The position numbers were made by a program, and so were the translations under genes. Under the pieces are notes generated by a model. That model was not told where the DNA came from. It ran no database searches and saw nothing but the letters and a program-made list of their open reading frames with translations. This document shows positions 1 to 54,968 of a DNA stretch of 64,000 nucleotides, one piece after another (the first letter of the stretch is position 1; the number at the start of each line of letters is the position of its first letter). Origin of the DNA: Eledone cirrhosa (Eukaryota); the NCBI GenBank assembly GCA_964016885.1, contig CAXHJY010000834.1, forward strand, positions 1 through 64,000. The letters are read 5' to 3'.

Positions 1-542
1 TATACATATATATATATACACATATATATCCATATATATATATATACATATATATACACATATATATCCATATATATATATACATATATACACATATATA
101 TACATATATATATATATACATATATATACACATATATATACATATATATATATATACATATATATACACATATATATACACATATATATATACATATATT
201 ACATATATATATATATACATATATATACATATATATATATATACACATATATAGATATATATATATATACACATATATACATATATATATATATACACAT
301 ATATACATATATATATATACATATATATACATATATATATATACATATATATATATATACACATATATATACATATATATATACATATATATACATATAT
401 ATATACATATATATATACATATATATATATACATATATATATACATATATACATATATATATATACATATATACATATATATATACATATATACATATAT
501 ATATACATATATATATACATATATATATACATATATATATAC

Positions 543-591
<49 letters not shown>

Positions 592-624
592 CATATATAT
601 ATACATATATACATATATATATAC

Positions 625-659
<35 letters not shown>

Positions 660-784
660 CATATATATATACATATATATACATATATATACATACATAT
701 ATATATATATACATATATATACATATATATATATACATATATATATACATATACATATATATATACATATACATATATATATAC

Positions 785-817
<33 letters not shown>

Positions 818-1122
818 CATATATATACATATATACACATATATACATATACATATATATATATACATATACATATATATACATATGTATATATACATAT
901 ATATATATACATATACATATATATATATACATATATATACATATACATATATACATATATATATATACATATATATATATACATATATATAAATATACAT
1001 ATATATATATACATATATACATATATATATATACATATATATATATACATATATATATATACATATATATATATACATATATATATATACATATATATAT
1101 ATATACATACATATACATATAT

Positions 1123-1302
1123 ATAATATAAGATCAAAAGATGGTTAAAGGAGTTCCATGTATTTTATTATGCGCATTGATGGAACTCCTTTAACCATCT
1201 TTTGATCTTATATTATGTATACTCCAGTCCTACAAACTGTAGAGTGCTTCTTATCCGATATCTGCATTGCTTTATTGTACTACAATAAAACTCACCTTCT
1301 AC
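1123..1302 (+). mobile_element. Fold-back cassette family A, copy 1 (Penelope-like terminal-repeat fragment)
   Basis: Arms 1123-1159 and 1180-1216 are reverse complements, and the right arm runs on to 1302. Same family as 38388-38780. The loop carries the 3' half of the family-A hammerhead on minus (aatgcgcataataaaata). Confidence 0.75.
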
Positions 1303-1372
1303 ATATACATATATACATATACATATATATATATACATATACATATATATACATATATATAAATATATATAC

Positions 1373-1453
<81 letters not shown>

Positions 1454-1472
1454 CATGTATATATATGTATAC

Positions 1473-1505
<33 letters not shown>

Positions 1506-1509
1506 CATG

Positions 1510-1545
<36 letters not shown>

Positions 1546-1586
1546 CATATATATATACATATATATATATACATATATATATATAC

Positions 1587-1755
<169 letters not shown>

Positions 1756-1820
1756 CATATATGTATATACATATATATATATATATACATACATATATAC
1801 ATACATATATATATATATAC

Positions 1821-1888
<68 letters not shown>

Positions 1889-2091
1889 ATACATACATAT
1901 ATATACATATATATATATATATACATATATACATATACATACATACATATATATATATACATACATATATATATATATATATATACATACCTATATATAT
2001 ACATATATATACATACATATATATATATATATATACATACCTATATATATACATATATATACATACATATATATATATATATATACATACA

Positions 2092-2129
<38 letters not shown>

Positions 2130-2144
2130 CATACATATATATAT

Positions 2145-2175
<31 letters not shown>

Positions 2176-2286
2176 CATACATATATATATATATATATAC
2201 ATACATATATATACATATATATACATATATACATACATATATATATATATATATACATATATATACATACATATATATATATATAC

Positions 2287-2319
<33 letters not shown>

Positions 2320-2342
2320 CATATATATATAATATATATACA

Positions 2343-2492
<150 letters not shown>

Positions 2493-2565
2493 CATATATA
2501 TATATACATATATATATACATATATACATATATACATATATATATATACATATATATATATATAC

Positions 2566-2612
<47 letters not shown>

Positions 2613-2631
2613 CATATATACATATATATAC

Positions 2632-2662
<31 letters not shown>

Positions 2663-2706
2663 CATATATATATATACATATATATATATATACATATATA
2701 TAATAC

Positions 2707-2895
<189 letters not shown>

Positions 2896-2896
2896 C

Positions 2897-3045
<149 letters not shown>

Positions 3046-3058
3046 CATATATATATAC

Positions 3059-3089
<31 letters not shown>

Positions 3090-3090
3090 C

Positions 3091-3139
<49 letters not shown>

Positions 3140-3154
3140 CATATATATATATAC

Positions 3155-3319
<165 letters not shown>

Positions 3320-3350
3320 CATATATATATATACATATATATATATATAC

Positions 3351-3381
<31 letters not shown>

Positions 3382-3435
3382 CATATATATATACATATAT
3401 ATATATATATACATATATACATAATATATATATAC

Positions 3436-3473
<38 letters not shown>

Positions 3474-3610
3474 ATACATACATATATATACATATATATA
3501 TATATATACATATATACATATACATACATACATATATATATATACATATATATACATACATATATATATATATATACATACCTATATATATACATATATA
3601 TACATACATA

Positions 3611-3692
<82 letters not shown>

Positions 3693-3729
3693 CATACATA
3701 TATATATATACATACATATATATATATAT

Positions 3730-3760
<31 letters not shown>

Positions 3761-3935
3761 CATACATATATATATATACATACATATATATATATATATA
3801 CATACATATATATATATATATATACATACATATATATACATATACATACATATATATATATATATATACATATATATACATACATATATATATATATACA
3901 TATGTATATATACATACATATATATATATATATAC

Positions 3936-3982
<47 letters not shown>

Positions 3983-4006
3983 CATATATATATTATATAT
4001 ATATAC

Positions 4007-4037
<31 letters not shown>

Positions 4038-4038
4038 C

Positions 4039-4093
<55 letters not shown>

Positions 4094-4094
4094 C

Positions 4095-4141
<47 letters not shown>

Positions 4142-4158
4142 CATATATATACATATAC

Positions 4159-4189
<31 letters not shown>

Positions 4190-4198
4190 CATATATAC

Positions 4199-4231
<33 letters not shown>

Positions 4232-4248
4232 CATATATATACATATAC

Positions 4249-4279
<31 letters not shown>

Positions 4280-4280
4280 C

Positions 4281-4311
<31 letters not shown>

Positions 4312-4599
4312 CATATATATACATACATATATATATACATATATATACATACATATATATATACATATATATACATACATATATATATATATATATATAC
4401 ATACCTATATATATACATACATATATATATATATATATACATACATATATATATACATATATATACATACATATATATATATATATATATACATACATAT
4501 ATATATATATATATACATACATATATATATATATATATATACATACATATATATATATATACATACTTATATATACATATATATACATATATACATACA

Positions 4600-4631
<32 letters not shown>

Positions 4632-4923
4632 CATATATATACATATATATATATATATACATATATACATATATATACTACATATATATATATATATATA
4701 TACATATATATACATACCTATATATATACATATATATACATACATATATATATATATATATACATACATATATATATATATATATACATACATATATATA
4801 TATATATATACATACATATATATACATATATACATACATATATATATATATATATACATATATATATACATACATATATATATATATATACATATGTATA
4901 TATATATATACATATATATATAC

Positions 4924-5102
<179 letters not shown>

Positions 5103-5183
5103 CATATATATATATATACATACATATATACATACATATATATATATACATATATATACATACATATATATACATATATATAC

Positions 5184-5214
<31 letters not shown>

Positions 5215-5233
5215 CATACATATATATATATAC

Positions 5234-5273
<40 letters not shown>

Positions 5274-5275
5274 AC

Positions 5276-5336
<61 letters not shown>

Positions 5337-5778
5337 CATACATATATATATATACATATATATACATATATATACATATATATATATATACATACATATA
5401 TACATACATATATATACATATATATACATATATATATATACATATATATACATACATATATATATATATATATACATACCTATATATAGTACATATATAT
5501 ACATATATATACATATATATATATACATATATATACATACATATATATATATATATATACATACCTATATATATACATATATATACATACATATATATAT
5601 ATACATACATATATATATATATATACATACATATATATATATATATACATACATATATATATATATATATATACATATATATACATACATATATATATAT
5701 ATATACATATGTATATATATATATACATATATATACATACATATATATATATATATACATATGTATATATATATATAC

Positions 5779-5847
<69 letters not shown>

Positions 5848-5874
5848 CATATATATATATACATATATATATAC

Positions 5875-5919
<45 letters not shown>

Positions 5920-5948
5920 CATATATATATATATACATATATATATAC

Positions 5949-5980
<32 letters not shown>

Positions 5981-6026
5981 GTATGTATATATATATATAT
6001 ATATGTATGTATATATATGTATATAC

Positions 6027-6069
<43 letters not shown>

Positions 6070-6126
6070 TACATATATATACATATATATACATATATAC
6101 ATACATATATATATATATATATATAT

Positions 6127-6163
6127 CGTTTCTTGGCAACATGACCCTCCCAAAGTATAACAA

Positions 6164-6166
<3 letters not shown>
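6127..6166 (+). mobile_element. 40-bp islet of the Penelope-like 3' terminal region inside the TA array
   Basis: gtttcttggcaacatgaccctcccaaagtataacaatat matches the reverse complement of ~51295-51335, apart from a 3-nt indel. Confidence 0.85.
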
Positions 6167-6197
<31 letters not shown>

Positions 6198-6224
6198 CAT
6201 ATATATATATACATATATATATAC

Positions 6225-6255
<31 letters not shown>

Positions 6256-6374
6256 CATATATATATATACATATATATATACATATATATATATACATAT
6301 ATATATACATATATATATATACATATATATACATATATATATATACATATATATATATACATATATATATATAC

Positions 6375-6491
<117 letters not shown>

Positions 6492-6528
6492 CATATATAT
6501 ATATACATATATATATATATACATATAC

Positions 6529-6725
<197 letters not shown>

Positions 6726-6726
6726 C

Positions 6727-6771
<45 letters not shown>

Positions 6772-6805
6772 CATATATATATATATATGTATGTATATAT
6801 GTATG

Positions 6806-6836
<31 letters not shown>

Positions 6837-6847
6837 GTATATATATG

Positions 6848-6882
<35 letters not shown>

Positions 6883-6925
6883 GTATGTATATATATATAT
6901 ATATGTATATATATATGTATATATG

Positions 6926-7042
<117 letters not shown>

Positions 7043-7055
7043 GTATATATATATG

Positions 7056-7190
<135 letters not shown>

Positions 7191-7203
7191 GTATATATAT
7201 ATG

Positions 7204-7270
<67 letters not shown>

Positions 7271-7405
7271 GTATATATATGTATGTATATATATGTATAT
7301 ATATATATGTATATGTATATATGTATGTATATATATATATATATGTATGTATATATATGTATATATATATGTATATATATGTATATATATGTATGTATAT
7401 ATATG

Positions 7406-7439
<34 letters not shown>

Positions 7440-7650
7440 TATACATACATATATATACATATATATATATACATACATATATATACATATATATATATAC
7501 ATACATATACATACATATATATACATACATATACATATATATACATACATATACATATACATACATATACATACATATACATATATCTATATATATACAT
7601 ACATATATATATATACATATATATACATACATATATATACATATATATAC

Positions 7651-7681
<31 letters not shown>

Positions 7682-7742
7682 CATATATATACATATATAT
7701 ATATACATATACATACATATATACATACATATATATATATAC

Positions 7743-7836
<94 letters not shown>

Positions 7837-7848
7837 ATACACATATAT

Positions 7849-7881
<33 letters not shown>

Positions 7882-8246
7882 CATACCTATATATATACAT
7901 ATATATATACATACATATATATATACATATATATACATACATATATATATACATATATATACATACATATATATATATATATATATACATACCTATATAT
8001 ATACATATATATACATACCTATATATATACATATATATACATACATATATATATATATATATATACATACATATATATATATATATATACATACATACAT
8101 ATATATATATACATACATATATATATATATACATATATATACATACATATATATATATATATATACATACATATATATATATATATATACATACATATAT
8201 ATATATACATACATATATATATATATATATACATACATATATATAT

Positions 8247-8279
<33 letters not shown>

Positions 8280-8416
8280 CATACATATATATACATATAT
8301 ATACATATATACATACATATATATATATATATATACATATATATACATACATATATATATATATATACATATGTATATATACATATATATACATATATAT
8401 ACATATATATATATAC

Positions 8417-8533
<117 letters not shown>

Positions 8534-8772
8534 CATACATATATATACATATATATATATACATATACATATATATATATACATATATATATATACATAT
8601 ATATATATACATATATATATATACATATATATACATACATATATATATATACATATATATATATACATATATATACATACATATATATATATACATATAT
8701 ATATATACATATACATACATATATACATACATATATATACATATATATATATATACATACATATATATATAC

Positions 8773-8805
<33 letters not shown>

Positions 8806-8850
8806 CATACAGATATATATATACATATATATATATACAGACATATATAC

Positions 8851-8881
<31 letters not shown>

Positions 8882-9246
8882 CATACATATATATATATAT
8901 ATACATACATATATATATATACATACATATATATATATATATATACATACATATATATATATACATACATATATATATATATACATACATATATATATAT
9001 ATATATACACATATATATATACATACATACATATATATATATATACATATATATATATACATACATATATATATATACATACATATATATATATACATAC
9101 ATATATATATACATATATATATATATACATATATATATATACACATATATATATATACACATATATATATATACATATACATATATATACATATATATAT
9201 ACACATATATATATATACATATACATATATATATATATACATATAC

Positions 9247-9277
<31 letters not shown>

Positions 9278-9278
9278 C

Positions 9279-9381
<103 letters not shown>

Positions 9382-9416
9382 CATATATATATACATATAT
9401 ATATATACATATATAC

Positions 9417-9467
<51 letters not shown>

Positions 9468-9482
9468 CATATATATATACAC

Positions 9483-9513
<31 letters not shown>

Positions 9514-9528
9514 CATATATATATACAC

Positions 9529-9559
<31 letters not shown>

Positions 9560-9588
9560 CATATATATATACACATATATATATACAC

Positions 9589-9762
<174 letters not shown>

Positions 9763-9764
9763 TA

Positions 9765-9925
9765 CGTTATTCCGGGTTGAATCGGAGGTAACCACAGTAA
9801 GTAAGGTACTCAATACATAGCAGAGTATAAAAGTTTTAATATAGATGAGATTCTACAGGACTAGAACTGTTTCATTCATTAGAAATCATCAGGATTCCTG
9901 ATGATTTCTAATGAATGAAACAGTT
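9765..9925 (-). mobile_element. Fold-back cassette B with split hammerhead-like core
   Basis: Perfect 30-bp arms 9865-9894/9896-9925 containing CTGATGA-tttctaatgaat-GAAA-cagtt. The long arm extends left to ~9765. TA runs on both sides. Confidence 0.65.
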
Positions 9926-9929
9926 ATAA

Positions 9930-24329: not shown

Positions 24330-25800
24330 GCACAACACACAAAGAAGTATAACACACAAAGAAGTATAACATACAAAGTAGTATAACACAAAGTAATATA
24401 ACATACAAAGTAATACAACACAAAGTAGTATAACATACAAATTAGTATAACACAAAGAAGTACAACACACAAAGTAGTATAACACACAAAGTAGTATAAC
24501 ATACAAAGTAGTATAATACACAAAGTAGTATAACATACAAAGTAGTATAACACACAAAGAAGTACAACACACAAAGTAGTACAACACTCAAAGTAGTATA
24601 ACACACAACGTATAACACACAAAGTAATATAACATACAAAGTAGTATAACACACAAAGTAGTATAACACACAAAGTAGTATAACACACAAAGTAGCATAA
24701 TACACAAAGTAGCATAACACACAAAGTAATATAACACACAAAGTAATATAACACACAAAGTAGTATAATACACAAAGTAGTATAACACACAATGTAGTAT
24801 AACACACAAAGTAATATAACATACAAAGTAGTATAACACACAAAGTAGTATAACACAAAGAAGTATAACACACAAAGTAGTATAACACACAAAGAGTATA
24901 ACACACAAAGTAGTATAACACACAAAGTAGTATAACACACAACGTAGTATAACACACAAAGAAGTATAACACACAAATTAGTACAACACACAAAGTAGTA
25001 TAACACACAAAGTAGTATAACACACAAAGTAGTATAACACACAACGTAATATAACACACAAAGTAATATAACATACAAAGAAGTATAACACACAAAGTAG
25101 TATAACACAAAGAAGTATAACACACAAAGTAGTATAACACACAAAGAGTATAACATACAAAGTAGTACAACACACAGAGTAGTACAACACACAAAGTAGT
25201 ATAACATACAAAGTAGTATAATACACAAAGTAGTATAACATACAAAGTAGTATAACACACAACGTAGTACAATACACAACGTAGTATAACACACAAAGAA
25301 GTACAACACACTAAGTAATACAACACTCAAAGTAGTATAACACACAACATAGTATAACACACAAAGAAGTATAACATACAAAGTAGTATAACACAAAGTA
25401 ATATAACATACAAAGTAATACAACACACAAAGTAGTATAACACACAAAGTAGTATAACAGAAAGTAGTACAATACACAAAGTAGTATAACACAAAGTAGT
25501 ATAACACGCAAAGTAGTATAACATACAAAGTAGTACAATACACAAAGTAGTATAACATACAAAGTAGTACAATGCACAAAGTAGTATAACATACAAAGTA
25601 GTATAACACACAAAGTAGAATGACATACAAAGTAGTACAACACACAAAAAGGTACAATACACAAAGAAGTACAATACATAGAGAGGTACAACACATAAAA
25701 AGGTACATTACTCACAAAGTACAACGTAGAAAGAAGTACAGCACATAAAGTACAACTTACAAAGAAGTACAACACACAAAACAGTATAACAAAGTACAAC
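24330..25800. repeat. ~1.5 kb minisatellite, ~17-bp unit ACACACAAAGTAGTATA
   Basis: Tandem units with 15-17 bp variants, degenerating to the right. Confidence 0.95.
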
Positions 25801-26067: not shown

Positions 26068-26228
26068 TTATGTATATATATATATATATATATATGTATA
26101 TAATTATTTTATATTATATCACACTCTGCTCTGTAAGAACATAGAGTGCTCAACTTGCATACCGCCTATGGAAGCATCATAGCTACCATCCGACACACAT
26201 ATTTATATGTATATATATATATATATAG

Positions 26229-26621
26229 AAATGTAAGCTATCGCCGTATTTTGACTAAAGAAATTAAAGAAATTATTTAGCCTGATAGTGGGGTTAAGAA
26301 CCCTCGGAGAAATGGAAAAAGATGAGTATTGACGTACATGGGAGTCGAACCCACATCTTTGGTTATCCAGACCACTAAGCTACCATTTACACCAACACAT
26401 GTGATGTGTTGGTGTAAATGGTAGCACAGTGGTCTGGATAACCAAAGATGTGGGTTCGACTCCCATGTACGTCAATACTCATCTTTTTCCATTTCTCCGA
26501 GGGTTCTTAACCCCACTATCAGGCTAAATAATTTCTTTAATTTCTTTAGTCAAAATACGGCGACAGCTTACATTTATAATAATTTCAAACCCGCTCGGTG
26601 TTTCGAAAAATATTCTTACTT
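26229..26621 (+). mobile_element. Fold-back cassette C with tRNA-like head
   Basis: ~172-bp arms 26229-26400/26404-26575 with about 3 mismatches and a 3-nt loop. The right arm extends to ~26621. TA on both sides. Confidence 0.85.
26403..26474 (+). tRNA. tRNA-like cloverleaf (probably not a translational tRNA; loop CU-GGA-UA), mirrored on minus at ~26330-26400
   Basis: Acceptor gatgtgt/gtacgtc (several G-U pairs), D arm gtgt..gcac, anticodon arm gtggt/accaa, T arm gtggg-ttcgact-cccat. A box tggtgtaaatgg and B box ggttcgactcc. Confidence 0.6.
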
Positions 26622-27633
26622 AATATATATATATATACATACATATGTATGTATTAATACCCACATGCGCACACACACATATTGCTTCTTTCTTTCTTTT
26701 TTTTTTATTTTGTACCAACTATGCTCTATAGTAAAGAAAAGTAATAACAATAATAATAATAATAATTGTTTCTACTTTTGGCACAAAGCCAGAAATTTGA
26801 AGGGAAAGGGACAGTCAATTAAATCGACCTCAGTGCATTACTGGTGAATTATTTTATTGACTCTATAAGGATGAAAAGCAAAGTTGATCTTTGCAGGATT
26901 TGAAGTCAGAACGTAAAGAACCAGAACAAACACCACAATGGCATTTTATCCAGCTTTCTACTAATTCTGCCGTAAGTAAATACGACAAAACATTTTGTCT
27001 GACGATCTTTGTCTGACGATTTAGGCACAATGCCAACAATTTTAGGGGAGGGGAAAGTTGATTAAAGCGATCCAGTGCCTTACTGGTACTATTTTATTGA
27101 CCCTGTAAGGATGAAAGGCAAAGCTAACCTCAGCAGGATTTGAACTCAGAATGTAAAGGGCCATAATTATTTGCCACAAAGCATGTTGTTCGACACTCTA
27201 CCAATACTGCCAATCCACCACTCTTGTGCCAATAATAATAATATTAATAACAACAATAATAATAATAGATGGAAGTAGGAGGCAAAAAACTTCTACAAGA
27301 ATATATATTCATAAATATTTTGATTGGTCTGTGCATATTTTTTTAAAAATTTGGTTAGAACCATATGAAGAAATAGTGTGGTGCCATTTCCATAGAGAAT
27401 GGCAGTAATACTAAATACAATAATGCTGGGTTATATAGATATATACAGATATTGTATCTTCCGGGAAACAGCAAAACCGTTCCAAAGATATGGCAGCAGA
27501 TAGGAAGGAATCTGGCTGACAACATTCCGGAAAAGGAATATTCCTCATAGAAATTCAATTTGAAATCATCTATGATACAGGTGACATAAATAACTATATT
27601 TGTAAATACATGTGAATGTGTGTGTATATATAT

Positions 27634-28432: not shown

Positions 28433-28623
28433 ATAGGAAAAGATATGACCCCGACAGCAGAGCTCAAGCCGTTTCGACGGCTATTTCTGGACTAGCCAGA
28501 AATAGCCATCGAAACGGCTTGAGCTCTGCCGTCAGGGTCATACATTTTCCTATTACCCATTCTACTACCCTAAGTACTCTGGTGTGTTATGGTCCATCTG
28601 ATTCCTTACCACAACTCCTTTGT
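28433..28623 (+). mobile_element. Fold-back cassette E
   Basis: Arms 28433-28490/28496-28553, extension to 28623, TA both sides. GAAA-cggc-tt-gagctc directly follows the central hairpin. Confidence 0.75.
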
Positions 28624-33721: not shown

Positions 33722-34184
33722 TACGATATTAAACAAATGGAAACTATATTTATAAAACCATATTTATTTCGTTATATATATTTCTGGGATATCATATTAA
33801 AAATATGTTATGCCTTCCTCAGACAAAATACAATACATAAGCTGTTTTATAAATAATTAGTGACATACCTTGTAATAATGCAACTTCCTTTTAAAAAGTT
33901 GATTTGGTAGATACTACCAAATCAACTTTTTAAAAGGAAGTTGCATTATTACAAATGTCACTAATTATTTATAAAACAGCTTATGTATTGTATTTTGTCT
34001 GAGGAAGGCATAACATATTTTTAATATGATATCCCAGAAATATATATAACGAAATAAATATGGTTTTATAAATATAGTTTCCATTTGTTTAATATCGTAA
34101 ACCTACTCCAGAAACTGTCGAGTGCTTTTATATCAGTTATAAAATATTTACTCGTTGTAACCCAACAATCTTAAATAAAACTTT

Positions 34185-34187: not shown

Positions 34188-34215
<28 letters not shown>

Positions 34216-34220
<5 letters not shown>

Positions 34221-34540
34221 CCATACAAAATCACTGATGGGTAGATCTCCAAATCTAAAAATAACACTTCACCAGCATCTTTGCCTATGGATATAGTCTT
34301 AGTTAAGCGACCTCAAGCTAGAAGGCTTCACTTATTTTCCTAGCTTTAGGTTGCTTAACTAAAACTATATACCTAAGGAAAGATGCTTGTGAAATGTTCT
34401 TTTTAGATTACTTTATTGGGATCTACCCCTCAGTGATTTTGTATAAGATGTTCTATATGTATTTGCTTCTCTGAATGAGATTTTTTTAAAGATCTCTTTT
34501 CATTAAGATGTTATGTATATTGGTGACAAATTTACCTGTG
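34216..34540 (+). mobile_element. Older fold-back cassette H
   Basis: Diverged arms 34216-34321/34340-34451, extension to ~34540, TA flanks. Confidence 0.65.
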
Positions 34541-35776: not shown

Positions 35777-38879
<3,103 letters not shown>

Positions 38880-39422: not shown

Positions 39423-40816
39423 TCACTCACTGGGCTGACTGTGAGAAGAGGTTTGTACTTGGGAGCTGGAATTGGTAATCTTTGGGTTCATATTTGAATG
39501 GTTTGGCATACCTAGCCCTGTGGCAGGAAACATCTGCAGAGCATGGTAAATATGTGTGGTGTTACCTGGCACTTGAATTGAAGGGAAAATCTGAGCGATT
39601 GGGTACATTGGTGCAGCTGCATTCTGAAACATCTGGCCACTTCCAGATACTGGCGTTGAATTAAGGGGTTGAGATGTCCCAGCAATATTGAGTGCGTGAA
39701 GGACTTTCACCTGTTGCTCGTCATGCTGTTCATGATGATGATGATGATGATGATGTTGTTGATGATGTTGATGATGGTCATGTTGTTCCTTTTGAAATGC
39801 CTGGCTATCTTCGTTACTTTCACCATCTTTCTGAGGAACACAGCTCAGCTTTCGTTCACCTTTATTTGGCCTATTATGTCTGATCAGGTGGTCATTGCGA
39901 GCAAAAGCGTAGCCACAGATCTTACATTTGAATGGTCTCTCACCTGTGTGGATCCTTCTATGAATTTTTAGGTGGTCCTTTCTTGAAAGAGCTTTGCTAC
40001 AAATGTCGCAGCTGAACATCTTCTCCGGTTGGTGGCTGATCATGTGACGCATCAGGTGGTCATTACGAGCAAATGCATAGCCACAAGTTAGACATCGATA
40101 TGGCCTCTCCCCAGAGTGGATTCTCTGATGCACCTTAAGGTGATCTCTACGAGACAGTGCTTTATTGCAGATATCGCAGGTGAACAGTTTTTGGTTGCTG
40201 TGAATACGTATATGGCGTACAAGATGGTCATTTCTGGCAAATGCAAAACCACATGTGGGGCATTTGAAAGGCCGTTCTCCAGTGTGGATACGTTTGTGCA
40301 CTTTCAAGTGGTCACGTCGTGTCAGAGTCTTGTTGCATATGTCACAACTATAAAGTTTCTCTGGTGCAGCAGCTGCTACTGGTGATGGTGCTGTTGTTGT
40401 TGTTGTTGTTGTTGGGTTCGTGGTGGTGATGGTGTTTACGTGGGAATGATGATGGTGGTGATTATGGTTGTGCTGTTGTTGCTGGTGGTGGTGATGGTGG
40501 TGGTGGTGGTGGGGATGGGGATGGGAGTGAGGATGTACATGAGATTGGTGAGACTGATGAATGTGAAGGCCGGCATGGCTATTAGAAATGTTCGTCACAA
40601 CTTTTCCATCAACATTAGATAACATAGTAGATGAGGAAACATTAGTTGTTAGAGGGACAGGATTTGAGGGTGTGACAAAAGGACCACTGCCCCACACATC
40701 ATAAGGGGTGCTTTTCTCAACTGAAGAACCAGAAGATACAGGGAAGCTGGAGGTGGCCTTGTTCTCAACAGTTTTAGAAGAGGACTGCACATCAGCATTA
40801 GCCATTGAATTCATGT
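39423..40816 (-). CDS. C2H2 zinc-finger transcription factor, large exon (6 fingers as three repeated pairs, poly-His/Gln tracts)
   Basis: Intact ORF with CDIC..RRDHLKVH..H-TGERP-FKC..CG..FARNDHL.RH x3. Splice acceptor ttttaatccAG before 40816, and a donor-like GTGAGT at 39430 overlapping the ORF end. Confidence 0.93.
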
Positions 40817-40979
40817 CTGGATTAAAATAAAACAAAACTACTTTAAAATGACATTATCATATTGGTCAGTTACAATAAGATATCACTATATTACAATTGG
40901 ATACTATATACTACTATAGCACATAGTATACTACTATAGCACTGCACTAGATACTGGATACCAGATATCATATCACTGC

Positions 40980-50604: not shown

Positions 50605-50610
<6 letters not shown>

Positions 50611-50724
50611 GGAGTTACCAGTTTAGACTAATAAGACCATGTTCAACTATGAACTCAATACTTGGGAAAGTAATAACCATTACAATACATGGTCTTCCTA
50701 GTCTAAACTGGTAACTCCCAATCT
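50605..50724. repeat. Short fold-back cassette I (~38-bp arms) between (GA)n and TA
   Basis: 50605-50642 vs 50687-50724. Confidence 0.7.
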
Positions 50725-51215: not shown

Positions 51216-51451
51216 GTATATATGTATATATATATATTTCGTTTCTGAATTTGTTTAGCAAGATTCTTTATCTGAAATCGTGTGTTGAAACCGATATTGT
51301 TATACTTTGGGAGGGTCATGTTGCCAATAAGAAACACACGTACCAGTTGCTTTCACTTCAATTTATTATAATAAATTTATAAATTTAGGAATAAATCTAT
51401 AAATTTCTGGTTGGTTGGTTGGTTCCACAACCAGATAGTTGTTTATATATT

Positions 51452-51494
51452 GTCAAAGTTCTTTCGTCACACATTCTGTGACCTCTTCAGTGAC
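51452..51494 (-). ncRNA. Minimal hammerhead motif in the PLE 3' pseudo-LTR
   Basis: gtca-CTGAAGA-g-gtcaca gaatg tgtgac-GAAA-gaac-tt-tgac, ~200 nt downstream of the stop codon. Confidence 0.75.
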
Positions 51495-51540
51495 TGGGGA
51501 TTCTTTTCTTTGTTTTTGTGCCTCTCCTTTGTTCTGTCCT

Positions 51541-51590
51541 ACGCCATTTTGTTTCTGTGTGTGTGTTGTGTGCTTAGTCTGCGCATGCGC
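51541..51590 (-). promoter_or_regulatory. Candidate pLTR promoter motifs: YY1-type (aaaatggcg) and NRF1-type (gcgcatgcgc)
   Basis: Exact motif matches 50-100 nt upstream of the hammerhead, in otherwise CpG-poor sequence. Confidence 0.4.
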
Positions 51591-51694
51591 CACATCCAGG
51601 TGTCTGTGTGGTTTATGTTCATTTATTTATTTGTTTATTTACATGTTACTGGTTGGTTGTTTGTTCTATGTGTGTGTGTGTTTTCATTTTGTCC

Positions 51695-53776
51695 TTAATT
51701 GTAAGTTGTGATGTTGCTGTTCCACTCATATTTTCTATTTAATTTTGGTTGTAATTCTTTTATGCTTACTGCCTCTGTAATTTGCCTAAACATTGCATCT
51801 TTTCTGTGTGTGGATTCTATTTTTATTTCTATGTTCTCTAATTTACCCCTGTGTTCTATCTTAGCATGTTGGTAGAGCACAGATGATTCTTTATTATCTT
51901 GAAGGTCTCGCCAGTGTTCATTTATTCGTTCCCCTATACTACGAGCTGTCTCACCTATGTACACTATATTTTTGTTTCTACATTGTCCTTCAGTACATCT
52001 TATGCTATACACTACATTTCTAGTTTTACAGTTAATATGGGGGCTTATTTTACAGGTTATACATTTCTTATCTATACATGAGGGTCTTTGGAACGGGTAT
52101 GTCTTGCTAATAAGTGTTTTTACGGAGGTACCTGGTCTTTCTACTATCTTAATATTGAGTTTATGTTTATTTAGGGCCCTTCTAAATTTGTAGGCTAGTT
52201 CGCCTCTAGGGGTTGTATTGATGAACATTACACTCTGGTATTTATTGCTATCATACCATGAGTTTATTCTATTGGCCTTGTTCCTAGTTCTTTCTATTCT
52301 ATTCCAAAATTTGCTCCTATACAAGGGGCAGGTCCCATTTATGTCATTATTTACCATTTTTTCCCATTTGGTTCTGGCTCCTCTATACACTCTGATTCTA
52401 TCTCTCTGATTGTAGCCAGAGAACTGCATACGGTGGATGAAGTGTTGTATGTGTCTCTCTAGTTCTTCGGGGTTGCACATGCGGAACACATTTCTCATCA
52501 CCCGTACCAAATCCGCAATCAGTATGTTGATTTTGGTATGGTCCGAAATGGCCGAGTTTCGGTGGATCAGATGTTTGGAAGTCATGGGTTTGGCATAATG
52601 GGAATGGAGGATTTGTTTTTGGTTGTTAATGGTATCTAACCAGAGCTCTGTGTCTAGTACAGGTAATCGATGGTTGGGGTGTCTACTTGGGTAGTCTATA
52701 GTAACTCTAATGCTCTGGTGGATGGAGTTTGCTATTTGCTGGATGCTTTCCATTGTGTTTTTCTCTAGTTCCTGACTGTTCTTTAGTGGGGGTGTCTTAA
52801 CTACGATGTGTATATCATCTACGTAGCGGGAGTACATTATCAGGGTTAAGCTGTCTTCTAATTGTTCTTTAAGTTTTTGTTTAAGTCTACTGTCCCACCA
52901 TACCATGAATAAGTTAGCTATGTCGCCTGCAATACTAACACCAATGGCTGCTCCTTCCTCTTGGGCATATGTTTTACCATTAAATTTGAACATATGTTCC
53001 TTAAGGGTTAATTTTATGCTGGCCCCTACCGCATGTGCAATCATTTTCTTCAGTTCATCGTGGTTTTCGGGTGTCCGTATGGCTCTGGTCCACCCGTTCC
53101 ATCTATCTGTGTGGGTTTTCTTGGCCATTGAGGTAATGGTAGGTGGTCTGCCTCTTGCTGGTCTTGTAGGGCACAGGTTGCTAAGGTCATATGTGTCTAG
53201 GTAATTATTACTATAGGTAAGTTTAAGTAGGAGTCCCAGCTCACTGGTATCAATCCCACGGAACTCAACATTGCTCTCACTGATCATTTCTACGCATTTC
53301 TCCACAGCAAAATCCACGTCAATAGATGGATACAGGGACACAACATCCATACTACCTATTATGCAGTTTGTTAGGTCCCTAGATCGGTTACTCGCGCCGA
53401 TTCTGCTGAGAAGGTCCTCCGTGCTGTCACATACATCTGGGGACATTTCAATGATGGGGCGTATGATCAGGGAGAGGAAATAGGACAGTCTGTAGTTACT
53501 AGCAATGTTAGCTCCACAGACTGTCCGTGTTGGTGGTCCTGTGGCAGGGTCACTGCCCGTTTTATGGTCTTTTCGAAGCCCATACAACGCCGGCACGTCA
53601 TTGTTCCAGGCCTGGAAGTTGTTGGCAGTCCTTTTGTTGGGCTGCATTATATTCGTCCACATCACCATATGGGCATTGAGGACTTTTTCTCTACCCTCAT
53701 GCTCCTGTGGTGTTACCTCTCTTGTGTTAGTGATGTGGGGGTTGCATTGCCTGGATGTAGTTTGGCAGGCTGTCAA
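51695..53776 (-). CDS. PLE reverse transcriptase + GIY-YIG endonuclease (open for 693 codons; joined to upstream 53727-54203 by a frameshift near 53740)
   Basis: GSMDVVSLYPSI, GAAIG, YSRYVDD, LPVLD, YAKPM, C..C..C NVVYSIRC..YIGETARSIGERINEH, RQITEAV..PKLN. Confidence 0.9.
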   Translation of the reverse strand: MTACQTTSRQCNPHITNTREVTPQEHEGREKVLNAHMVMWTNIMQPNKRTANNFQAWNNDVPALYGLRKDHKTGSDPATGPPTRTVCGANIASNYRLSYFLSLIIRPIIEMSPDVCDSTEDLLSRIGASNRSRDLTNCIIGSMDVVSLYPSIDVDFAVEKCVEMISESNVEFRGIDTSELGLLLKLTYSNNYLDTYDLSNLCPTRPARGRPPTITSMAKKTHTDRWNGWTRAIRTPENHDELKKMIAHAVGASIKLTLKEHMFKFNGKTYAQEEGAAIGVSIAGDIANLFMVWWDSRLKQKLKEQLEDSLTLIMYSRYVDDIHIVVKTPPLKNSQELEKNTMESIQQIANSIHQSIRVTIDYPSRHPNHRLPVLDTELWLDTINNQKQILHSHYAKPMTSKHLIHRNSAISDHTKINILIADLVRVMRNVFRMCNPEELERHIQHFIHRMQFSGYNQRDRIRVYRGARTKWEKMVNNDINGTCPLYRSKFWNRIERTRNKANRINSWYDSNKYQSVMFINTTPRGELAYKFRRALNKHKLNIKIVERPGTSVKTLISKTYPFQRPSCIDKKCITCKISPHINCKTRNVVYSIRCTEGQCRNKNIVYIGETARSIGERINEHWRDLQDNKESSVLYQHAKIEHRGKLENIEIKIESTHRKDAMFRQITEAVSIKELQPKLNRKYEWNSNITTYN

Positions 53777-54968
53777 CCGACATTCTGCCAGACTTGTCTG
53801 TTGGAAAGCATGCTATCTCTCCATTACGCGAGCGCTGCACGAGCTTACGCAAGCCATTTGCAGATTTTTCTCCCAGTTGCTGGGCCTCCATTCTATTATG
53901 CTTCTTGCTATACTGTTCTATAATATTTCTAAGTTCGGATCTAGCTATACTAAATTGTGCTTCTGTTTGTTCATCGACCTGCGACGGCAATTGCGTGCGT
54001 TTGATAAATGGTAAAGTTGTGGCGTGGACTCGTCGCAGGCCGAACGACTTATCGGAGGGATTATAAAAAGTAGAGTTCCAGGCTGCTGCTTTATGTGTAC
54101 TAGTGCTATTGTTATTGTTAGTTGTGTTGTTTCTATTTCTATTTCCACCAACAGCTTCATGGTTGTTTCTATGTCTCTCATAATTACTCCTGTCTCTTTC
54201 CACTGGCTCATTGTTATTATCTACCCTATTTTGTGTGTCTGTGTGTTCGTCTTGGTTATTTTCTTTGTCCTTAGTCTCCCTTCTCCTTTTAATCCTATTA
54301 CTTTCCCTTATTTCTGTGATTTCTATGCTACTGTCATTACTTGTTTTCTGTGTCTGTGTGTTTGTTAAGATTGTGGTGGTGGTGAGAGGCGTTGAATGTG
54401 TGTTTGTTGTTGTTGTTGATGTGTGCTGTTGTTGTTGTTGATGTGTGCTGTTGTTGATGTGTGTTGTTGTTGTTGTCTCCGTGTGTGTTATTATTGTGTG
54501 TGTTGTTATTGTTGTTTGTGTCTGCGTGTCTGTTGTTGTTTCTGAGTATGTTATTATTGTTGGTGTGTGTGTTGTTGTTATTGTTGTTTGTGTCTGTGTG
54601 TCTGTTGTTGTTGGGATGTGTGTTGTATATGTGTGTGTGTATGTTGTTATTTTTGTTTTTGTTTTTGAGGCTCCAATGTAATTTTGTAAATGATTTTTCT
54701 ATTTCTGATAGACAACTAATCATATTTACCTTCTTGAATGTCGCAAATTTTGGTGGTAGAATTAATACAGATAATTCATCAGGGTCTATTACCGTGTTGC
54801 CGTATATATTTGTGTTGTTGTTGTTGTTGAACTCATCTGTTAATGAGGTGTCGGCCATGTTTATACCGTCAATTTTGTCGGGATATCTATTGGTATTCTC
54901 TACAGTATCCTGATTTAGTTTTATCTGCTTAAGCCACTTTAGTTTTTTGTTAAAGTGCTTATCACATT

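Follow-up and report, generated by a model that had tools for sequence, protein, structure and literature searches.

Non-LTR retrozymes are non-coding repeats with a unit of 150-450 bp, a low GC content, forms that run from monomers to multimers and a link to PLEs, and each of their units carries a type I hammerhead (PMC7229834); the animal retrozymes have been proposed to be non-autonomous derivatives of PLEs (bioRxiv 10.64898/2026.07.22.740005), in a preprint whose text does not contain the term 'tRNA'. PLE insertions have a published signature made up of partial tandems, an adjacent inverted and 5'-truncated copy, a tail of 30-40 bp and a bias towards TA, the origin of the inverted arms and tails being named there as unresolved, and these traits are found in EN-positive PLEs (Neptune, Naiad) and in non-autonomous Chlamys such as MRC1, with the Naiads also being without canonical hammerheads (PMC8557442). 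The tRNA-derived SINEs are shorter than 700 bp, have a tRNA head with A and B boxes and, a few bases before it, a probable Pol III start, and include dependence on a LINE in their definition (PMC3531059). Helenus/TRIMp3 is non-autonomous and of a non-LINE class, and combines a tRNA-like Pol III promoter, in which anticodon and isotype disagree, with LTRs, a PBS, a PPT and TSDs of 4-5 bp (PMC10886601).

The element with a 272-nt unit that I will discuss here, one copy of which lies in the window (the whole stretch of 64,000 nucleotides that was analysed), shares with the retrozymes the size, low GC and multimers of its non-coding unit and the PLE link, with the PLEs and Chlamys the tandems, inverted copy, tail and TA bias, with the SINEs the length, head and probable start, and with Helenus/TRIMp3 the promoter, the discordant anticodon and the non-autonomous, non-LINE way of life. 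However, where the retrozymes have a hammerhead it has a tRNA-derived module, strong self-pairing is lacking and its 5' ends suggest a Pol III start; unlike Neptune, Naiad and Chlamys it has no ORF and possesses that internal module; unlike the SINEs it has PLE-type ends and no LINE tail, a tandem unit with a leader and an internal T5; and with PLE-type ends in place of LTRs it would be the PLE counterpart of Helenus. No tRNA-bearing element mobilised by PLEs is described in the literature that was searched, Repbase and the subscription papers lying outside that search. Ohshima and Okada reportedly described three octopus tRNA retroposons in 1994, and these stand outside the SINE comparison made here.

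The insertion consists of two inverted arms, 26226-26400 and 26404-26578, which are 175 nt long, 98% complementary and different from one another at four element positions (q24, q25, q162 and q174, with q1 = 26403); the right arm is 38-43 nt longer and ends at 26621, and TA repeats adjoin both ends (Table 1). An earlier note on this DNA had described such an asymmetric, TA-flanked fold-back, free of a hammerhead and containing a 72-nt cloverleaf with A and B boxes, a D arm like that of tRNA-Gln, features no normal tRNA would have and a T5 run 9 nt further on, and this description is borne out. Hammerheads are absent from both strands in a core-motif scan of the locus and in an Rfam search at E<=10 of 2.8 tandem units, the latter finding no ribozyme. 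The Rfam tRNA model matches 26403-26474 (+) with 47.1 bits and 26330-26401 (-) with 30.7 bits against a cut-off of 29, and ARAGORN calls Ser(GGA) for both arms, so that annotation can easily mistake copies of this kind for tRNA genes. The module is not a functional tRNA, because GGA occurs without a long arm (the variable loop has 4 nt), position 37 is T where a functional tRNA has a purine, q33, which should be U, is polymorphic (C in 57/98 arms, another base in 41/98) and the older subfamily B has another loop. The 17-mer from the D arm of the host tRNA-Gln is present exactly in subfamily B; a count of host tRNA-Gln gave 18 matches. The element is short and non-autonomous and its small-RNA head has internal promoter sequences, as in a SINE, but its own ends, being of PLE type and without a tail repeat, do not indicate dependence on a LINE RT. 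Identity with mascRNA/menRNA was considered and rejected (15.1 bits versus a cut-off of 42.5). Where the earlier note put the junction exactly at the 5' end of the tRNA, the vicinity is right and the exact base is not: the left arm begins at +2, and the right arm begins at -2, since the leader of the family ends with the two bases 26401-26402.

Table 1. The fold-back insertion and its flanks, in window positions.
Feature	Position	Strand	Basis
Left (TA)n target flank	26204..26228	.	Sequence
Inverted arm, +2 to about q173-176, tail absent	26229..26400	-	Inverted arms of other copies mostly end at q165-183
tRNA-like copy of the inverted arm; +1 absent, D stem broken at q24-25	26330..26400	-	Rfam 30.7 bits
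Leader bases -2 and -1 (of 53 nt); 5' end of the main arm	26401..26402	+	Identical to the leader of tandem copies
72-nt tRNA-like module, Gln-type D arm, non-functional anticodon loop	26403..26474	+	Rfam 47.1 bits; comparison with host tRNA-Gln
Pol III A box; T8, A14, G18 and G19 present	26410..26421	+	Sequence; established consensus
Pol III B box / T loop, GGTTCGACTCC; standard A58 = 26459	26453..26463	+	Sequence; Rfam alignment
q61-69, where family copies are mainly truncated or folded; includes the palindrome CATG (26464-26467)	26463..26471	+	28/61 main arms at risk; contig joints 26336-26464
T5 run, potential Pol III terminator, in the trailer, which can pair with the leader	26484..26488	+	Sequence; fold
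Body to inner 3' end (q181)	26475..26583	+	Tandem copies and end map
38-nt PLE-type 3' extension (tail), one arm only	26584..26621	+	80/91 main arms finish there
Right (TA)n target flank	26622..26644	.	Sequence

A search of the genome (G000, 3.0 Gb of DNA) gave 1402 candidates, 40 of which were scored, and a 30-nt tail motif has 773 exact matches in the genome, compared with none for its reversed control; because pairwise divergence is about 5%, the true copy number of the family is probably about twice the 773. Each unit is composed of the tRNA module (q1-72), a body to q181, a tail (q182-219) and then a 53-nt leader, and tandem copies repeat with a period of 272 nt, the longest array having 10 full units. 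Both folding and inspection by hand indicate that the leader (-17..-1) is able to pair with the trailer (q75-91), T5 included, and a self-paired rod was not found in either linear or circular form (z -0.8 to +0.3 versus shuffles). The B box is near-invariant among dispersed copies of family A and T5 is intact in 41 of the 48 main arms measured, the first T run of the host tRNA-Gln genes often being T4-T6 as well. Subfamily B, with 39 matches to its tail pattern of which 30 were examined, has the same unit layout and keeps the T stem and CATG; T is found at standard position 58 and the B box is degenerate, the T loops having been read by eye and the end calls being rougher in this older group. 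A relative (X4) is present in contigs of a second organism. In the longest array (L014, G000:C4:61009627-61012411), T-arm or B-box changes occur in 9 of the 10 full units, the 5'-most unit alone being intact, and two variants occur in mosaic order; the units are not independent of one another. In a large tRNA-Gln cluster at G000:C1 ~168.217 Mb there is also a tRNA-Gln-derived copy (L184/L185) with a CTA (amber) anticodon, which ARAGORN reports as Pyl and which the changes in its acceptor stem suggest is a pseudogene.

For the end map, the first 100 tail matches listed on contig C1 were taken and, after 7 pairs, each of them part of a single insertion, were merged and 2 matches omitted, 91 insertions were available. 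Two fixed 3' ends lie 38 nt apart (q216-221 and q176-183), with 80 main arms finishing at the tail end, 7 at q173-185 and 4 elsewhere; apparent ends at '207' are an artefact of a length variant in an A run. TA repeats lie within 6 nt of the 3' end in 77 of the 91 insertions and a tail-less inverted arm is adjacent in 60, mostly ending at q165-183 and adjoining TA or AAT repeats in 50 of these 60. The element itself ends in neither poly(A) nor a simple repeat, and it shows the tandems, inverted 5'-truncated neighbour, one-sided tail and (TA)n targeting of a PLE derivative; an RT/GIY-YIG element of this genome (L224, with a similar ORF, L214, having Pfam support) has the matching layout of a 3266-bp inverted pair with a ~44-nt tail on one arm. 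Given the PLE-type ends and the lack of a LINE tail, mobilisation by PLE machinery and not by a LINE, as had been suggested, is very probable. The further suggestion of a terminus belonging to a longer PLE finds no support, since the 14/91 main arms that exceed one unit are extended by more 272-nt units and 0/91 reach an RT/GIY-YIG ORF.

PLEs are abundant in this genome (10,596 GIY-YIG candidates, 150 being scored). Among the PLE ends of 50 loci out of these 150, no Naiad included, no significant 3' similarity to the element was found (best z 1.3-1.8), BLAST against 30 + 20 GIY-YIG loci returned short chance words alone, and the 31 copies without an adjacent inversion contained no arm that was chimeric with a PLE end compared; non-autonomous Chlamys, in contrast, generally resemble their autonomous family at the 3' end (PMC8557442). 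An apparent resemblance to the tail of the PLE in the window (51235-51330) failed to reach significance, with z of 1.3 and 0.6, and the two leading matches of a partner search turned out to be the element itself next to ORF motifs that were spurious. The PLE of the window, at 51235-53812 (-), has a 705-aa open frame with a weak RVT_1 match and, as judged by eye, a GIY-YIG-like motif at the C terminus; it also has a hammerhead-like core at 51490 and, with TA at its end, a ~54-nt tail.

The two arms of an insertion provide information about how many cDNAs were made. Of 60 inverted arms, 26 extend beyond the 5' end of the main arm by more than 10 nt, 24 end within 10 nt of it and 10 are shorter; a single self-primed hairpin could not produce the 26 longer ones. 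At diagnostic columns the arms are discordant in 5/29 cases at q174 (14.4 expected), three of which might derive from the TA flank, and in 2/14 at q33 (6.4 expected); arms of one insertion differ by 3.5% and random pairs by 5.0%, in a comparison with no usable polymorphic column. Both arms of an insertion thus tend to carry the same subfamily alleles, so that events with two unrelated RNAs are the exception, and I read each insertion as two cDNAs, usually made from one multimeric RNA or one source subfamily, with asymmetric deletion of the palindrome centre being a live alternative for the longer inverted arms.

Against a background of 0.005 stops per nt, main-arm 5' ends pile up at -4..+5 (12 of 23 at risk versus 1.0 expected) and at q61-69 (28 of 61 versus 2.7 expected), and inverted arms do so in 5/14 and 24/50 cases; these zones were not chosen on the end-map data alone, because they had been seen first in a smaller, mostly different sample. 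The pile-up of fold points at tRNA +1 for which the earlier note proposed a test is found around the start, but 0 of 16 ends fall exactly on +1. Nor is there support for a junction at the tRNA start as the defining feature: the commonest fold point is q62-66, the best-supported joint in independent contigs is q66/q62, and only about 3 of the 60 inverted copies (L146, L149, L173) have both arms ending at the tRNA start. Both arms of the window copy extend past the q61-69 zone. Pooling of tRNA starts gave 52 ends, not an unbiased sample, of which 33 remain when 15 long leaders and 4 whole leaders with substitutions, judged by eye, are set aside: 14 lie at -5..-2 (7 of them at -4, the mode), 5 at -1 (ambiguous with +1), 11 at +2..+5 and 3 at -9 or -13. 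The 14 retain 2-5 templated leader bases, which RNase P cannot leave; together with the empty +1 position this speaks against the earlier idea that the 5' end is made mainly by RNase P, although this enzyme could contribute to the -1..+5 class.

Host genes offer a comparison. Retrocopies of the host tRNA-Gln that follow TA arrays begin with leaders of 4 nt (L210, against its gene L194) and 3 nt (L201, against its gene L207), and L201 extends beyond the tRNA by ~85 nt, passing two T4 runs and stopping just short of a T11 run, and is joined head-to-head to an arm of another fold-back family (that of the 28433 cassette in the window). It follows that pre-tRNAs have been retroposed with the same geometry, with starts matching the -4 wall of the element, and that two different RNAs can supply the two arms. 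The 2-5 nt leaders common to element ends and host retrocopies point to a Pol III start rather than to RNase P, and judging from these sequence ends Pol III initiation is quite likely the source of the 5' end. Since T5 is intact in most arms, the majority of transcripts would stop at ~86 nt, and read-through or Pol II input would be required; the objection that T5 speaks against simple Pol III read-through stands in so far as passage through T5 itself is something I can only infer, and is weakened by the host retrocopy that passes T4 runs. The spread of subfamily B with a degenerate B box means that Pol III is not required for mobility. L201, L206 and L210 are all retrocopies of host pre-tRNA-Gln that lie in TA arrays and retain both leader and trailer. 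A minor cluster of eight 5' ends at q87-92, at the base of the leader-trailer helix and just after T5, is a weak and post hoc observation.

The stop at q61-69 is a property of family A, with only 1/17 main arms of subfamily B ending there (Fisher P=0.002) and, for both arms together, 52/111 in A versus 2/25 in B. Subfamily B keeps CATG yet is without the stop, so microhomology alone is insufficient and the intact T loop makes the stop. The modified base m1A58 is a known RT stop (PMC8599865) and possibly sets the one seen here; a footprint of m1A misincorporation was not found in arms that read through (A58 substitutions 3/98 versus 24/2022, P=0.13), and since the fold too is weakened when A58 is lost, the contrast between A and B does not tell modification from structure. 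That contrast further suggests a trade-off in which an intact T loop both promotes transcription and blocks RT. At the RNase Z site (q72-74) there is no enrichment of ends (1/62 versus 0.9 expected).

How else might these ends be explained? The tRNA module may be a passenger of a repeat that is mobilised by PLEs, with long RNAs supplied by Pol II read-through from the host or a neighbouring PLE and with 5' clusters reflecting RT stalls or processing, and the retained T5 terminator, the success of subfamily B with a broken B box and often with the leader included, the altered T arms or B boxes in nine of ten units of the longest array and the 14/91 main arms that exceed a single unit would all agree with that. 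However, the wall of ends at -4/-5 equals the leaders of host pre-tRNAs, the B box hardly varies in dispersed family A, and a structural stall seems improbable because the 3' pairing partners would already have been copied when RT nears +1, which makes the passenger explanation unlikely, though one to be kept in mind. I am more doubtful still that the tRNA mimic replaces the hammerhead, with RNase P cutting at +1, RNase Z cutting after 72, or both, to turn multimers into monomers or circles in the manner of retrozymes. The Rfam-grade cloverleaf with its intact T loop, the retrozyme-like size and tandems and the 16 of 33 pooled ends at -1..+5 favour such processing, but neither of the two cleavage sites collects ends (0/16 and 1/62), 14 of the 33 ends have templated leader, the z values give no self-paired rod and the array units are mosaics rather than identical rolling-circle copies.

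An ordinary LINE-dependent tRNA SINE with a 5' inversion by twin priming would account for a tRNA head with A and B boxes in an element that is below 700 bp, dispersed and abundant. Twin priming of L1 yields non-overlapping pieces, whereas the arms considered here overlap in sequence, and the two fixed 3' ends without a poly(A) or simple-repeat tail, the 53-nt leader in tandem units and the inverted arms in 60 of 91 copies render this origin very improbable. The window makes up an entire unplaced contig (G000:C861:1-64000), none of the Logan contigs listed bridges the junction of its copy, and one might suspect a sequencing or assembly fold-back; yet the arms differ at four positions, the flanks are not duplicated, the layout is common to 60 other insertions and independent Logan contigs carry fold-back joints of the 272-nt family, such that an artefact is scarcely credible. 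As a class the palindrome is no assembly artefact, and the one in the window is a young, real copy of a tRNA-headed, ribozyme-free, non-autonomous element of PLE type.

The reading that I consider probable is that of a two-armed insertion of a ribozyme-free, tandem-forming, non-coding 272-nt element, likely mobilised by a PLE RT/GIY-YIG protein and likely transcribed by Pol III from its tRNA-derived module. Pol III would start at about -4 (a G after C) and sometimes read through T5, with the RNAs of tandem copies carrying the leader along; PLE endonuclease would nick both strands of a TA array, and RT would prime a first cDNA at the tail end and a second ~38 nt further in. Each cDNA would halt at an intact T arm, due to either an m1A58 block or the folded elbow, or at the 5' end of the RNA, and the ends of the two cDNAs, or a single such end and the TA flank, would be joined via microhomology of 2-4 nt; at a stop set by m1A58, use of the nearest CATG or AT would shift the ends by 4-8 nt. 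In the window copy both cDNAs would have reached the RNA 5' end, hence the fold at the tRNA start. I lean, with some reserve, towards a distinct class of retroposons that have a tRNA head, are driven by Pol III and live as parasites of PLEs, as the PLE counterpart of SINEs and TRIMp3, and whose copies form a fossil primer-extension map with stops at the Pol III start and the T arm, possibly at m1A58. If this is true, a Pol III element riding on PLE enzymes would add a third host class to LINEs and LTR elements, and the many short insertions with two fixed priming sites would provide a minimal substrate for the question of the inverted arms and tails of PLEs.

The window contains six other fold-back cassettes at microsatellites (9862-9928, 28433-28553, 33722-34099, 34204-34462, 38469-38781 and 50605-50724), three of them with CTGAnGA cores and several with one-sided tails exceeding that of the 272-nt element. 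Very long TA-type arrays of 9.8 kb and 2.6 kb occupy 1-9764 and 35781-38387, and a 17-bp minisatellite of ~80 copies lies at 24334-25671. At 39426-40853 (-), a 476-aa open frame that includes C2H2 zinc-finger motifs and a poly-His tract is probably a host exon.
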